Position numbers and translations under genes: made by a program
Notes under the pieces: model-generated
Seen by the model: only the letters and a program-made list of their open reading frames with translations
What the model was told of the DNA's origin: nothing
The model's database searches: none
From: Escherichia coli
GTDB lineage: Bacteria; Pseudomonadota; Gammaproteobacteria; Enterobacterales; Enterobacteriaceae
Length of the DNA stretch: 64,000 bases
Strand: one strand, 5' to 3'
NCBI RefSeq assembly: GCF_024502345.1
Contig: NZ_JALDNN010000001.1
Shown here: in pieces, positions 29,224 to 36,515 of the stretch
How positions within the stretch are numbered: the stretch's first letter is position 1
Layout of the letters: each line of letters starts with the position of its first letter

Positions 29224-30435
29224 TTAAGCACCGCTGGCCGGGATCGGCATCTGTGATTTGCGGCTCATCAGAATAAATACCGCCAGGCCTGCCAGCAAAA
29301 TGCCCGGCGCAGAAGCCGCCATCACCCCTACCCTTCCGGTACCGAGCGCTAACATTTTCCCTGCCAGCAGCGGACCGCTCATCGCCCCCAGACGCCCGAC
29401 TGCGACGGCGGTTCCCACGCCTGTGGCGCGGATCTGCGTGCTGTAAAACAGCGGCGCCAGCGCATACAACACACTTTGCCCGCCGGTGGCGAACATCCCC
29501 GCCACAAATCCCGCCATTAGCATGCCGCTCAATGACGACACCGTACCCAGCGCCAGCAGTGAAGCCAACATCCCGGTGTAGATCAGCAGCGACATCACCA
29601 CCGGGCGCAGTTTATCCATTAACGCCCCGAGAATTAACGTGCCGCTGGCCGCGCCAATTTGCAGAGCAAACATTACGCCTGCCGCCTGCGATGGCCGAAA
29701 GCCCTGCTCCACCAGCAGCATCGGCAGCCAGTTGATCAGCATATACACCACCAGCAGGGTGAAGAAATAGCACAACCACAGCAGCAGCGTGGCACTCGCC
29801 GTCGCTGGCGCAAACAGGGCGCGCAACGGTGCGGCGGCCACCTGCGTTTGTTGGGTATAAACCTGAGATTCCGGCAGCCAGCGCATCAACAGCGGCACCA
29901 GCAGCAGCGGGATCACCCCGCCTACCCAGAACACCGTTTGCCAGGCGGAGGCCAGGCCGCTAAACCCGAGCGCTGCCGCCAGCGCCGCGCCAATCGGCAC
30001 ACCGCAGTACATCAGGCTCACCGCCGTACCGCGAAAACGCGGGCCCGCCGCCTCGGAAGTCAGCGCGATCAGATTCGGCAACGCCGCGCCCAGCCCGACG
30101 CCGGTCATCAGACGGGCAAACACCAGCGATGAGAAATCCCAGGAAATCGCCGTCGCCAGCGAGAACAGGCCGAACAGCGCCACAGAGGCAATGAGAATAC
30201 GCTTGCGGCCATAGCGGTCGGCCAGCATGCCGCCCACCAGCGCGCCGGGCAGCAGCCCGAGAATGCCCGCACTGAAGATCCAGCCCATCTGCATTTTATC
30301 CAGCGCAAACGCGTGGGCGATACCGACGGCAGCGATACCGGCGGCCTGTAAATCCAGCCCTTCCATCAGGGCAACTAAAAAGCAAAGCCCAACGGTCAAC
30401 GTCAGGCGGTAAGATGCGGAGGTACGGGTCGTCAT
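29224..30435 (-). CDS. mhpT: MFS transporter, MhpT-like (3-hydroxyphenylpropionate transporter), second-copy cluster
   Basis: ORF 29224..30501. The start was taken at MTTRTSASYRLTLTVGLCFLVALMEGLDLQAAGIA (403 aa, the same length as K-12 MhpT as I recall it). It sits directly downstream of the second mhpE. Confidence 0.85.
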   Translation of the reverse strand: MTTRTSASYRLTLTVGLCFLVALMEGLDLQAAGIAAVGIAHAFALDKMQMGWIFSAGILGLLPGALVGGMLADRYGRKRILIASVALFGLFSLATAISWDFSSLVFARLMTGVGLGAALPNLIALTSEAAGPRFRGTAVSLMYCGVPIGAALAAALGFSGLASAWQTVFWVGGVIPLLLVPLLMRWLPESQVYTQQTQVAAAPLRALFAPATASATLLLWLCYFFTLLVVYMLINWLPMLLVEQGFRPSQAAGVMFALQIGAASGTLILGALMDKLRPVVMSLLIYTGMLASLLALGTVSSLSGMLMAGFVAGMFATGGQSVLYALAPLFYSTQIRATGVGTAVAVGRLGAMSGPLLAGKMLALGTGRVGVMAASAPGILLAGLAVFILMSRKSQMPIPASGA

Positions 30436-30504
30436 AAGATGTCCCTCTGAGGTCACGATGCAGGTGAATCGCGGCTGATACGTTGCCAGCCGCGTAATCA
30501 TTTT

Positions 30505-31518
30505 TTATTTGCGGTTGCGCAGGTCCAGCGCTACGTCGACGATCATATCTTCCTGGCCGCCCACCATCCGACGTTTGCCCAGTTCCACCAGAATATCTAC
30601 TGCGCTCAGGCCATAACGTGCTGCCGCCACTTCGCAATGACGCAGAAAACTGGAGTACACCCCGGCATAGCCCAGCGCCAGCGTTTCACGATCCACCCGC
30701 ACCGGGCGGTCTTGTAGTGGACGCACTAAATCGTCGGCGGCGTCCATCAGTGCGTAGAGATCGGTTCCGTGCTGCCAACCAAGCTTATCCGCAGCGGCGA
30801 TAAATACCTCCAATGGTGCGTTGCCCGCGCCTGCGCCCATCCCTGCCAGGCTGGCGTCGACACGGTCACACCCCTCTTCTACTGCGGCAATCGAGTTCGC
30901 CACCCCAAGACTCAGGTTGTGATGCGCATGCATTCCGGTTTCTGTTTCAGGCTTCAGCACCGCTTTCAGTGCGCGGAAGCGGGCGCGAATATCGCTCATG
31001 TTCATTGCGCCGCCGGAATCGACCACATAAATACAGGTCGCGCCGTAGTTTTCCATCAGCTTCGCCTGCTGTGCCAGGTTCTCCGGTGTGGTCATATGGC
31101 TCATCATCAGAAAACCGACGGTATCCATGCCAAGCTCACGCGCATACTGAATATGCTGGGCCGACACATCCGCTTCAGTGCAGTGGGTCGCCACGCGCAC
31201 TACCCGTGCGCCGGCCTGATATGCATTTTTCAGGTCATGAATAGTGCCGATACCCGGCAGCAACAGCGTGGCAATTTTGGCATGCTTCACCACGTCCGCC
31301 GCCGCTTCAATCCACTCCAGGTCGCTGTGTGCACCAAAGCCGTAGTTGAAGCTGGAACCTTGTAAACCGTCGCCGTGGGCCACTTCAATAGAATCAACCC
31401 GTGCGTCGTCCAGCGCTTTGGCTATCTGGCGCACATTCTCCAGCGAATATTGATGACGAATAGCGTGCATACCGTCGCGCAGGGTCACGTCAGAGATATA
31501 GAGTTTTTTACCGTTCAT
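30505..31518 (-). CDS. mhpE: 4-hydroxy-2-oxovalerate aldolase MhpE, second-copy cluster
   Basis: 337-aa ORF beginning [25 protein letters not shown]. Its start overlaps the stop of the second mhpF. Confidence 0.92.
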
Positions 31519-34175: not shown

Positions 34176-35129
34176 TTAGTTCTGTGTAGTGGCGCTCAGG
34201 GAGCCGAATCCGGCGATCCACTCCGGGATCGGGCGGTAATAACGGCCTTCGCTGCGCCAGTTGCCAAAAGCAGAAATGGCGGCAAAGGCGGCAAAGGCGG
34301 CAACCCAGGTTTTCACTTCGTGCGTTGATTTGCCCGCCATCGCGGACAGCTCTTCGTTACTGACCGCGTCCAGCCCCTGCAAACGCCCCTGCTCAAGCAG
34401 GGACATAAAACGGTTATCCCAGACAGGGTTAAGCGGGTGTAGCGTGTTTTGATCGACCACAAACTTCTCGGCGGCGCTGATCACCCGCTGCTGGCGCAGC
34501 TCGCGCTCGTTTTCAGGTAACTGTTTGCCACTGCCGAGCAGGCGGTCACGCATATGGGCATCAGCCTTCGCCAGCTCCGGTACCGGCGGCTGATGCGATA
34601 GCCCGCCGGAGCCTAAAAACAGCACGCGCTTATTCAGCGAGCTGGCGAAACGGCCAATCGCTTCACCGAGCATGCGGGTACGCTGAAAGCCCGGCAGCGG
34701 CGTTGCGACGCCGTTAATAAACACTGGCAGCACCGGCACCTTATCCAGGCCGCCGAGCAAAAACTCCAGCGGCTGCGCGAAGCCATGATCGACCTGCATG
34801 TTGTAGGACACGGCGAGATCGATACCGCTTTTCATTACCGCGTGGGCGCAGGCTTCAGCCAGATCTGTCGGCACCGGTAATTCCCCCGCCGCGCTACCAA
34901 AATCGCCGATCGCCGTAGCGCCAACGCCTAAACAGAACGGCGGCATCACGTCGTAGGAAAATCCGTTGTAGTGATCGGGGGCAAACAGCACGACCAGTTC
35001 AGGTTCGAACGCCGCAATACGTGCCCGAGCGCTGGCGATCACGCCATTAACCTCGTCGAGCACAGCCTGTGCCGGGTCGACATAGCCCACCAGCGGCGAG
35101 TGGGAAAGACAGTGAAGATAAGCGTGCAT
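34176..35129 (-). CDS. mhpB: MhpB dioxygenase, second diverged copy, with a 3-aa insertion
   Basis: The start was taken at [19 protein letters not shown]. It is 317 aa against 314 aa in copy 1; the extra AAF comes from a 9-bp tandem repeat at 34279-34296. Confidence 0.9.
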
Positions 35130-35130
35130 A

Positions 35131-36515
35131 TCAGGCAACCTTTTCAACAGGAATGTCGGCAGTAGCGCGAGTGAGCGTCATCACCGACGCCAGTTTATTC
35201 AGGGTGCTGCCCAGGGTTTGCGGAATGGCGATGGCGGCCACGAAGCGGTCCGGACGCATGACTACCAGCGCGGCGTTGTGCTGGGCAAACCACGCGCGCA
35301 GGCGGTTTTGCGTATCGCCTATGCGGGTAACGCCGTCGTGGTTATCCTGATCGGTATGTATCTGCGTATCCGGCACGACCTGGATAAAACGCGTCCCCAG
35401 CGCCTGCCACTGTTGGATCTGCGCCTCGCTCATGCCCCATAGTGGGTTACAGCCCCAGCCAATCACCGCAAAATTCGGTCCGATGACGTTGTCGAGCAAC
35501 GTCACTTCGCCCGATTCCAGCGTCACCTTCGGCTGGATAAACATCTTGCCGACCGGTGAAGTTTTCGCGTCGCCTTCACGCACCAGCGCCCCGGCGTGGT
35601 ACTGCGGCATCGGCTTAAACCGCATTTCAAGGAAGTAGCGTTTGACCGGCGGAATATAGTTCAACAGCCAGGAAACCCCATCGCGTACCGCGCCGTGCCA
35701 GCGTTTGGGCGGCGCAAGTACGTTGCCAGCGGTCACGGAGAGGTCGATCATCGCTTTGGCGTGGTCGCGGCGTTCCTGCTGGTAGGTATCCAACAGCGCA
35801 TCGTCGGCTTTACCGTTAATCACCAGCGCCAGTTTCCATGCCAGGTTGAAAGCATCGCGCATGCCGCTGTTGTATCCCTGACCCTGCCAGACCGGCATAA
35901 TGTGCGCCGCATCGCCCGCCAGCAGCACGCGGTCAATACGAAAACGTTCGGCCAGACGAGCATTATGGGTATACACGCGCTGGCGGATCAGCTCGACGTT
36001 GTCCGGGTTCGGCAGCACTTTGCTCAGTAACTGGCGCATATTCTGCGGCTCGCTAAGCTGCGCTTCGGTTTCCCCCGGCATAACCATAAACTCAAAACGG
36101 CGCACCGCGTGCGGCAGCGCGGCAGAGACATACGGGCGCACCGGATCGCAGCATAAATACACATGCGGCGTGCTGAGCGGATCGTTGGCGATATCCACCA
36201 CAATCCACTGATTCGGCGCGGTTTTACCTTCAAACGGCACGTTCAGAGAACGTCTGACGTTGCTGCCGCCGCCGTCGCAGGCCACCAGCCACTGAGCCTT
36301 CACCGTTTCACGTTGACCGTCTGGCGCTTTCAGATTTAGCGTCACTTCGCCGTTTTGTTGGCTGAAGGCCTCCAGCTCGCGGGAGAACAGGCAGCGCACG
36401 TTGGGAAAACGCGACAACCCTTCCAACATCACCGCGTCCACCTGCGGCTGAATAAACGCATTACGACGCGACCAGCCAAATTCGTCGGTCATCGGCTGGA
36501 TATCAGCAAAGCAAC
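35131..36515 (-). pseudogene. mhpA: mhpA' second copy, with the 5' end (about 94 codons including the FAD GxGxxG motif) removed at the IS30 junction
   Basis: The frame reads (C)[27 protein letters not shown] and abuts the IS30 end at 36516. Copy 1 has 101 residues before the equivalent Met. Confidence 0.9.

Follow-up and report, generated by a model that had tools for sequence, protein, structure and literature searches.

Gene Content of the Second mhp Cluster

The DNA analysed here (the window) is a stretch of 64,000 nucleotides of Escherichia coli, contig NZ_JALDNN010000001.1 of assembly GCF_024502345.1, and it carries two mhp clusters. In K-12, the mhpR-mhpABCDFE-mhpT cluster encodes the meta-cleavage pathway of 3-hydroxyphenylpropionate (3-HPP). 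One copy is the resident cluster next to lacI. The subject of this study is the other copy, mhp2 (29224-36515, minus strand), which lies in a genomic island and not beside lacI as in K-12. All seven reading frames of mhp2 are free of internal stops and six of them (mhpB2 to mhpT2) begin with ATG. Translation of all frames thereby agrees with an initial annotation of the window, which had described mhpB2 to mhpT2 as intact with preserved start/stop overlaps; the 4-bp overlaps mhpD2/mhpF2 and mhpF2/mhpE2 are retained.

The intact genes encode, in order of position, the major facilitator superfamily 3-HPP transporter MhpT2 (29224..30435; NF008586 equivalog, 602 bits against a cutoff of 410), the 4-hydroxy-2-oxovalerate aldolase MhpE2 (30505..31518; TIGR03217, 601 bits), the acylating acetaldehyde dehydrogenase MhpF2 (31515..32465; TIGR03215, 461 bits), the 2-keto-4-pentenoate hydratase MhpD2 (32462..33271; NF008461, 565 bits), the meta-cleavage product hydrolase MhpC2 (33281..34147) and the extradiol dioxygenase MhpB2 (34176..35129; NF009907, 683 bits). 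The mhpB, C, D, F and E genes are thus present in mhp-operon order, with the B, D, F and E models above their cutoffs, and mhpT follows downstream of mhpE as in the mhp operon. Equivalog-level NCBIfam matches were obtained for A, B, D, F, E and T. MhpC2 is an alpha/beta hydrolase with 92.4% amino acid identity to MhpC of copy 1; its best NCBIfam match is the bphD equivalog, under that model's cutoff, and in identical loci RefSeq names it 2-hydroxy-6-oxonona-2,4-dienedioate hydrolase. In the window mhpB2 contains a derived in-frame 9-bp insertion (34278-34286) that is absent from Citrobacter and from E. coli C, 504239 and TW11681. The seventh gene, mhpA2' (frame 35131-36513, feature to 36515; NF004827), is a 5'-truncated hydroxylase pseudogene without a start codon. 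Since its product covers positions 95-554 of the 554 in the profile, exactly the 94 N-terminal residues that form the FAD-binding N-terminus are gone, and a full-length FAD hydroxylase of 554 amino acids is not encoded. RefSeq annotation of related loci agrees, with mhpT to mhpB intact and mhpA a pseudogene 'missing N-terminus'.

The two copies are collinear and clearly diverged, as was initially claimed. Self-BLASTN aligned window 1-4808 with 31686-36513 on the same strand at 82.46% identity over 4828 columns, far beyond chance. Copy-2 proteins were 90.0-92.7% identical to those of copy 1, among them MhpD2 at 91.8% (about 92% had been estimated) and MhpF2 at 91.9%. The differences indeed fall mainly at third codon positions, where identity was 55-65% as opposed to 91-98% at positions 1 and 2. 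Per gene, synonymous divergence (dS) was 0.86-1.26, with the highest value for mhpF2, and the ratio of nonsynonymous to synonymous divergence (dN/dS) was 0.035-0.061. Synonymous divergence between the copies is saturated, and the identity of 82.5% is far from the more than 98% of a recent duplication. Copy 2 shares with the K-12 cluster all seven structural genes, their order and the 4-bp overlaps, and amino acid identity to the E. coli orthologues is 87.5-97.3%. It differs in lacking mhpR, the mhpA promoter region and MhpA residues 1-94, and in a short, Citrobacter-like mhpE-mhpT spacer (69 bp). Copy 2 is therefore a member of the mhp family by gene content, without the defining regulatory features and without a complete MhpA.

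Citrobacter Origin and Extent of the Transferred DNA

In a donor scan with one genome per species, MhpC2 showed amino acid identities of 96-99% to the Citrobacter freundii complex, 91-92% to Escherichia and 88-91% to Kluyvera, Klebsiella and Raoultella. At the DNA level, window 26609-36513 aligned as a single block with C. portucalensis A60 at 98.2% identity, and C. braakii, C. youngae and C. pasteurii were contiguous with window 25864-36513 at 91-92%. Identity to copy 2 was 82-83% in Escherichia and 78-79% in Klebsiella, Kluyvera and Raoultella, and these last three genera were rejected as donors on that ground. MhpT2 is 99.0% identical to the protein of C. portucalensis and 87.5% to E. coli MhpT; for MhpE2 the values are 99.1 and 97.3%. 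A look-up of the exact MhpE2 protein led to two closer loci, one on a 2.5-Mb metagenome scaffold (L094, 99.05%) and one in CP057319.1 (L101, 98.86%). Both contain a full-length mhpA (554 amino acids) with an IclR regulator upstream and mmuP-mmuM-(insert)-fbpC-fbpB-fbpA downstream. The native Citrobacter order is lacZ-lacI-...-mhpR-mhpABCDFE-mhpT-mmuP-mmuM-afuCBA (fbpC being afuC), and tblastn with the resident MhpR protein placed its orthologue next to mhpA in the Citrobacter loci. Against 72,556 plasmids, megablast with copy 2 returned only matches of 78-83% to chromosomal-type mhp of Klebsiella or E. coli, and a plasmid origin was rejected because no near match was among them.

The synteny with the Citrobacter lac-mhp-mmu-fbp region indicates that copy 2 is a true orthologue from that region. 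With 98.2-99.05% identity to Citrobacter as opposed to 82.5% to the resident copy, and with synteny that extends through mmuPM and fbpC, it is evidently a xenologue, namely the orthologous mhp operon of a bacterium of the C. freundii complex. The initial proposal of acquisition from another enterobacterial lineage, rather than recent duplication, is borne out by these identities and by the dS of about 1, and the BLASTN comparison it had called for places the donor in the C. freundii complex.

The foreign DNA is larger than mhp2. The initial annotation bounded the second cluster at 29224, but the foreign DNA begins at 25864 and mhp is only part of it. Beyond mhpT2 lie mmuP (27546..28949, minus strand; S-methylmethionine permease; NF008484, 982 bits) and mmuM (26627..27559, minus strand; homocysteine S-methyltransferase; NF007020, 455 bits), which is contiguous with the mhp genes in Citrobacter as well. 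They are followed by a 3' fragment of afuC/fbpC (25865..26518, plus strand; NF008513 equivalog, positions 145-350 of 351) for a ferric ABC transporter ATPase without about 144 N-terminal residues. This fragment is 99.4-99.8% identical to the two Citrobacter-type loci L094 and L101 and 99.94% to K-12 afuC. The transferred unit is thus 25864-36515, afuC'-mmuM-mmuP-mhpT2...mhpA2', in native Citrobacter gene order. About 10 kb is contiguous at 98.2-99.05% identity with the same order from fbpC to mhpA, but the Citrobacter loci are complete (mhpR, full mhpA, fbpB and fbpA), and the closest ones have, between mmuM and fbpC, a PAAR-containing insert of 2.9 kb that the window lacks.

Distribution in E. 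coli

Of 5426 complete E. coli genomes, the sample used for all censuses below, 97 have the 9-kb stretch 29000-38000 with an identity of 99.8-99.9%, and mhp2 carriers make up about 2% of E. coli genomes. Among them are NCTC11121, NCTC9966, the probiotic strain G3/10 and the cheese isolate FAM21845 as well as isolates of human, cattle, pig, horse, wastewater and seawater origin. The 100 bp upstream of mmuP occurred in 798 genomes, of which 120 run on into mhpT2. In the other ~680 genomes the match ended at exactly 29125 in every sampled row, some 100 bp before the stop codon of mhpT2 is reached.

In the horse isolate A30 (L090, 1878-2977) the resident mhp cluster is deleted, and the 3' part of mhpT is fused to an mhpR fragment beside lacI. 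This strain also lacks the heat-resistance locus described below, and all that is left of mhp is the promoterless copy 2. The 100 bp upstream of mmuP further gave about 320 matches on E. coli plasmids. The only plasmid examined (NZ_CP018207.1) contains IS1-afuB'-fbpC-mmuM-mmuP-IS5 with breakpoints as in the CP4-6 island of K-12, and the truncated Citrobacter block appears to have turned into a mobile module.

Truncation of mhpA and the IS30 Junction

The insertion sequence (IS) IS30 (36516..37736, plus strand; 1221 bp; transposase 36578-37729, plus strand) abuts mhpA2' with its left inverted repeat (IRL). It is 99.4% identical to K-12 IS30A, has the same right flank and ends in TGTAGATTCAATTGG... 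and ...GATTGAATCTACA. A 2-bp direct repeat AC flanks it (36514-36515 and 37737-37738), and AH04 and E. coli C have the empty site with a single AC, which identifies a simple IS30 insertion. To its right lies the 3' part of an IS3-family element of the IS911/ISEc52 type (37739..38642, plus strand; 'IS3-like element ISEc52 family transposase, missing N-terminus' in RefSeq), which begins exactly where IS30A interrupts IS911A in K-12. The window junction reads ...GCAAC[IS30]ACCGC... (extended: ...ATCAGCAAAGCAAC[IS30]ACCGCTCTTG...), and in AH04 and E. coli C, without IS30, it reads ...GCAAC|CGCGCTC... (...ATCAGCAAAGCAAC|CGCGCTCTTG...). The K-12 IS911A sequence is ...GGCTAC[IS30]ACCGCGCTC... (...AAAAAAGGCTAC[IS30A]ACCGCGCTCTTG...). 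Since some Citrobacter mhpA alleles read ...GCAAAGCAACGGCC, mhpA-derived sequence can reach as far as the IS30 end. Immediately right of IS30 (37739-37745), the window has ACCGCTCTTG where K-12, AH04 and E. coli C have ACCGCGCTCTTG, so that the IS911 fragment shows a 2-bp (CG) deletion.

The junction census yielded 32 genomes with mhpA2'::IS30 and 67, including E. coli C, with mhpA2'::IS911 without IS30. Neither a Citrobacter-like mhpR or mhpA 5' end nor an untruncated copy 2 was present in the 5426 genomes. As the mhpA breakpoint is the same throughout and no E. coli has the mhpA 5' end, the truncation was a single old event, common to the carriers and not particular to this strain. The initial annotation had placed the loss of the first ~94 codons of mhpA, of its promoter and of mhpR at the IS30 junction. 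The losses and the position of IS30 in the window stand, but 67 genomes have the same breakpoint without IS30. The fusion point in IS911 is, to the base, the dinucleotide at which IS30A is inserted in K-12. Such a coincidence within a 1.25-kb element suggests that IS30 brought about the rearrangement, and IS30 was thus probably involved in making the mhpA2' junction.

K-12 and E. coli C also contain an IS30 remnant (IS30B') at the homologous site of ISX, another IS3-family element. ISX reads ...ATATTAAAAAAAGCTGC|IS30 and IS911 reads ...ATATTAAAAAAGGCTAC|IS30, in opposite orientations (K-12 L083, 12500-12560 and 22080-22160; window 36500-36530). The conserved OrfA/frameshift region of IS3-family elements therefore appears to be a hot spot for IS30.

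Many carriers have a group II intron (ltrA) that splits the IS911-type fragment at a distance of about 426 bp from its junction with mhpA2'. It was seen in E. coli C (L084, 16061-19235) and in L085, L086, L088 and L095, and is absent from the window. Since K-12 has ykfC and the small RNA eyeA at the corresponding position (L083, 14581-15993), these appear to be the leftover of that intron, cut by IS5A.

Island Context and the Heat-Resistance Locus

The left part of the Citrobacter block is present in K-12 itself. Window 25864-29125 is 99.94% identical to afuC-mmuM-mmuP of K-12 CP4-6, and the homology stops at 29125, where K-12 has IS5A. K-12 retains only afuB'C-mmuPM of the block. Citrobacter is contiguous across point 29125, so that the ancestral state is the one with mhp2, and that of K-12 is a derivative made by IS5. 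Window 36508-38163 corresponds to the IS30A-in-IS911A module of K-12, which is inverted there relative to mmuP; a putative IS30-mediated inversion followed by an IS5-mediated deletion would fit the orientations of the two types of island. The right arm in the window (56779..60068, minus strand) comprises ykfB...yafW-ykfI as far as the thrW attachment repeat and matches K-12 CP4-6 (L083, 8221-4931) at 99.8%. On the left, E. coli C, 504239 and TW11681 are K-12-like (yagF-yagE-yagA-yagB-ISX'-IS30B'-IS1B-afuB'-fbpC) and continue with mmuMP-mhp2-IS3'-...-LHR. With shared backbone genes, the attachment repeat and cargo between the backbone arms, the island is of the CP4-6 type. It differs from K-12 CP4-6 (at thrW, with afuB'-afuC-mmuM-mmuP as cargo), which has IS5A and a truncated group II intron (ykfC) at the position of mhp2 and perR-ykfA-yafZ in place of the heat-resistance locus. 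No tRNA gene was found in the window. Homology to K-12 breaks off within the thrW attachment repeat (~60068), and another, diverged CP4-like element follows, tail to tail with the ykfG-yafW-ykfI arm; window 57982-59595 and 60353-61966 form an inverted pair of about 1.6 kb with 78% identity.

At the left edge, IS1 (25097..25864, plus strand; 99.7% to K-12 IS1B) bounds the Citrobacter-derived block and joins a 5' stub of prpR to the truncated afuC/fbpC. The IS1-fbpC' junction is common to AH04, G3/10, A30 and LHM10-1 with varying left flanks (yahM, a lactate permease gene and others), which suggests successive, nested IS1-adjacent deletions in these relatives. In this strain IS1 fuses the first ~135 bp of prpR to the truncated afuC (window 23713-25864). 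Relative to K-12, the strain is without prpR, yahO-yahA, bet, ykg and most of CP4-6, tens of kb in all, and prpBCDE is still present with its activator gone. The close spacing of the two mhp copies is a consequence of this IS1 deletion between afuC and prpR.

[quoted passage not shown] Its genes are a helix-turn-helix orf1, hsp20, clpK, an ftsH-like gene, hsp20-GI, yfdX1/2, hdeD-GI, trx-GI, kefB-GI, psiE-GI, htpX and a degP-like gene. The left flank of the unit is an IS256-family transposase fragment (38650..39838, minus strand; annotated in NCTC11121, 99.85% identical) that is transcribed toward mhp2, and from this fragment rightward the window is 99.7% identical to the C. freundii plasmid NZ_CP048383.1. 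The locus in E. coli was described by Mercer et al. (2015; PMC4563881) and reviewed in PMC8290217. The heat-resistance-locus papers report it as 'flanked by mobile elements' and present in about 2% of E. coli (PMC4563881; PMC8290217; PMC12603250), and mhp is not mentioned in these three papers. That frequency equals that of mhp2, and mhp2 lies 4.4 kb from tLST in 9 of the 11 alleles compared (the window and 10 genomes). Still, tLST and the IS256 fragment occur without mhp on plasmids of other genera: the left-flank matches on Citrobacter, Enterobacter, Salmonella and Klebsiella plasmids start at the IS256 fragment or later, and conversely A30 and LHM10-1 have mhp2 without tLST. Membership of mhp2 in the tLST unit was ruled out on these grounds, and the locus is a neighbour of mhp2, outside the Citrobacter block.

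Expression and Fate of mhp2

The truncation leaves mhp2 with several problems for expression and function. Upstream of mhpA2' lie IS30 and IS911 in place of a divergent mhpR and an MhpR-dependent promoter, and the IS30 transposase gene is directed away from mhp2. No mhpR-like gene was found in 28900-37800, and a crude consensus scan of the same interval gave no sigma-70-like site on the minus strand. Transcriptional silence of mhp2 would follow from this arrangement, and the sole conceivable drive for it would be read-through from the IS256 fragment. As the FAD-binding N-terminus is missing, MhpA2', the first enzyme of the pathway, is dead. With a dead first enzyme and no evident regulated transcription, mhp2 is probably a silent passenger that looks intact because it is young: the 11 E. 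coli alleles are 0.06-0.19% different from the window, and a difference of 0.2% or less is in line with a recent transfer.

Several points weigh against this interpretation. The promoter scan was crude, and the minus-strand IS256 fragment could give read-through into mhp2. The six genes are without frameshift or stop in 11 of 11 alleles, which may hint at constraint, and the only two indels among these alleles are both in-frame and 9 bp long, namely the insertion in mhpB2 (in a subset of alleles including the window) and a deletion in mhpC2 of G3/10 (L089). The nonsynonymous to synonymous polymorphism counts were 12:8 for the six intact genes, 4:5 for mhpA2' and 5:4 for the presumably functional control mmuPM. 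The ratio in the six genes is about 10 times the long-term dN/dS but equally raised in mmuPM, so that the selection test does not discriminate; a raised nonsynonymous ratio is usual for very recent polymorphism. As regards the origin and junction of mhp2, the donor is placed in the C. freundii complex, with C. portucalensis as the best named match. Presence and absence of IS30 and of the group II intron occur in all four combinations (window; L095; E. coli C; AH04), and IS30 may have been lost from most lineages or re-inserted in some.

Alternatively, mhp2 could be a working auxiliary module. In that case mhpB2 to mhpT2 would be transcribed independently of MhpR, from an internal or upstream promoter or by read-through from the IS256 fragment or the tLST flank, and would add meta-cleavage capacity for dihydroxyphenylpropionate and dihydroxycinnamate that is retained by selection in tLST-bearing strains. 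The intactness of six of the seven genes in 11 alleles with in-frame indels, their scores as full-length equivalogs or family members and the minus-strand transposase fragment upstream would agree with this, the hydroxylated substrate could come from the resident MhpA, and A30 keeps copy 2 despite the deletion of its resident cluster. However, the coding strand is without a promoter-like site and the MhpR operator/promoter region is deleted. The 12:8 ratio is not below that of the adjacent pseudogene, K-12 and the ~680 other genomes lost the cluster and kept mmuPM, and the module would be redundant with the resident cluster. It therefore seems unlikely that mhp2 functions in this way.

Proposed History and Alternative Explanations

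The origin of the mhp2 block, its extent, its breakpoints and its distribution are directly documented at the level of sequence by the comparisons above. Overall, we consider it likely that mhp2 is of Citrobacter origin, that it is IS-bounded cargo of an island and that it is, most likely, a silent remnant. One contiguous piece of a C. freundii-complex chromosome that carried the mhp operon would have entered E. coli and become cargo in a CP4-6-type island, presumably at thrW, beside the heat-resistance locus. On the afu side, the block would have been trimmed by IS1, which in this strain also took out all DNA as far as prpR. At the mhp end, mhpR, the MhpR-dependent promoter region and codons 1-94 of mhpA would have been lost through a rearrangement at the IS30 hot spot in the IS911-type element. 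In CP4-6 of K-12, further decay would have left afuB'C-mmuPM, with IS5A where mhpT2 would start.

A more far-reaching version would hold that the afuBC-mmuPM cargo of K-12 and mhp2 are two states of one capture of at least 11 kb from Citrobacter, of the region orthologous to E. coli lac-mhp, with the tLST lineages keeping the older state. In its strongest form, the block and tLST1 would have entered together from a Citrobacter host, and the headless mhpB2-T2 would be expressed without MhpR and kept for the use of plant-derived phenylpropanoids by tLST strains. We regard this version as quite unlikely.

Another possibility is that an IS30 composite transposon (IS30-cargo-IS30) brought the block into an IS3-family element in a single step. 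IS30 does bracket the block, with the IRL directed at the cargo at either end. The right-hand copy is the complete IS30 next to mhpA2' in the window, the left-hand one a 181-bp IS30B remnant beyond IS1B in K-12 and E. coli C, and the two copies occupy the conserved hot spot shared by IS3-family elements. The outer flanks are, however, different elements with different dinucleotides (ISX with GC, IS911 with AC), so that a one-step insertion is not supported. K-12 IS30A has IS911 on both sides, like a simple insertion, and 67 genomes are without IS30 at the mhpA2' end. One split target with matching duplications was not found, the composite model was rejected, and we hold such a move to be very unlikely.

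Two further explanations have virtually no probability left. Duplication of the resident cluster with divergence in place, for which only the collinear order and the direct orientation within ~32 kb speak, is refuted by an inter-copy dS of about 1 that equals the divergence of E. coli and Citrobacter orthologues and by the 98-99% identity of copy 2 to Citrobacter chromosomes with mmuPM-afuC syntenic there, and its carriers are only ~2% of E. coli genomes. Collapse of a contaminating Citrobacter contig into the E. coli assembly, a concern already raised in the initial annotation, would account for the near-identity to Citrobacter DNA, but recurrence of the 9-kb stretch in unrelated complete genomes excludes such an artefact: the junctions on both sides (mmuP-mhpT2 and mhpA2'-IS30 or IS911) occur in 99-120 independently finished genomes, among them NCTC strains, E. 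coli C and G3/10, and even K-12 MG1655 has the left part of the block.

Returning to the Citrobacter-derived remnant, a part of the K-12 genome can now be traced to a concrete donor and to the genomic surroundings that it had there. CP4-6 mmuPM and afuBC were known from earlier work only as patchily distributed prophage cargo; the paper, on the MetJ regulon, described E. coli mmuPM as confined to CP4-6 of K-12 strains and not phage-associated in other species, with no donor named (PMC3228920). In incomplete literature coverage, no paper was found on a second mhp cluster or on the Citrobacter origin of the block. Papers that combine LHR/tLST with mhp, thrW or mmuP were not found either, and the only one that contains mhpT together with mmuP announces an unrelated genome. 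RefSeq already annotates the mhp2 genes; what is added is a new, well-documented case of a familiar phenomenon, in which a mosaic island carries the remnant of a xenologous operon. No new kind of system emerges from it, and its interest is modest and lies mainly in K-12 genome history and annotation. Still, about 2% of E. coli, including the laboratory strain E. coli C and the probiotic G3/10, have a regulator-less second mhp cluster that can confound annotation, pangenome counts, mhp typing by PCR or array and metabolic reconstructions. It is also a well-dated natural case of a promoterless operon as decay begins, and it puts on record that the frameshift region of IS3-family elements is a hot spot for IS30. 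A30, which lost the resident mhp cluster and kept mhp2, is a ready-made strain for testing mhp2 function.

Recombination Between the Two Copies

The two copies are direct repeats, so that a crossover between them would delete mhpA-mhpR-lac-cyn-cod-prp-mmu. The initial annotation regarded these ~7-kb homeologous repeats, placed about 28 kb apart, as a substrate for such a deletion. Homologous positions are actually 31.7 kb apart, and the case for deletion is weak, as the longest identical run between the copies is 36 nt and only three runs reach 30 nt. No gene-conversion tract was detected, with 200-nt sliding-window identity at 0.76-0.88 throughout, and gene conversion between the copies was rejected. 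In enterobacteria, a divergence of ~18% together with mismatch repair reduces homeologous recombination by orders of magnitude. The mhp copies are thus a poor recombination substrate.

Resident mhp Cluster and Minor Features

The resident cluster (1..5090, minus strand) agrees with the locus of the E. coli species representative (L014). By the list of open reading frames, it consists of mhpF' (to 780), mhpD (777-1592), mhpC (1596-2462), mhpB (2480-3424) and mhpA (3426-5090). It had been taken as a backbone copy spanning 1-5090, but it is cut by the window start inside mhpF and continues beyond it. Divergent from mhpA lies mhpR (5167..6114, plus strand) for the IclR-type activator of this cluster, the sole mhpR in the window, followed by lacI (6182-7273) and lacZ (7396-10470).

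Tandem copies of a repeat of about 94 bp, 83-93% identical, were observed between codB and prpE (window 18730-19086), and single related copies in the prpC-prpB and lacY-lacA spacers (23712-23805 and 11784-11826). A second short repeat of ~30-67 bp occurs at 12461-12527, 15922-15988 and 26570-26601. Both are presumably intergenic repeats of the REP (repetitive extragenic palindromic) or BIME (bacterial interspersed mosaic element) type.

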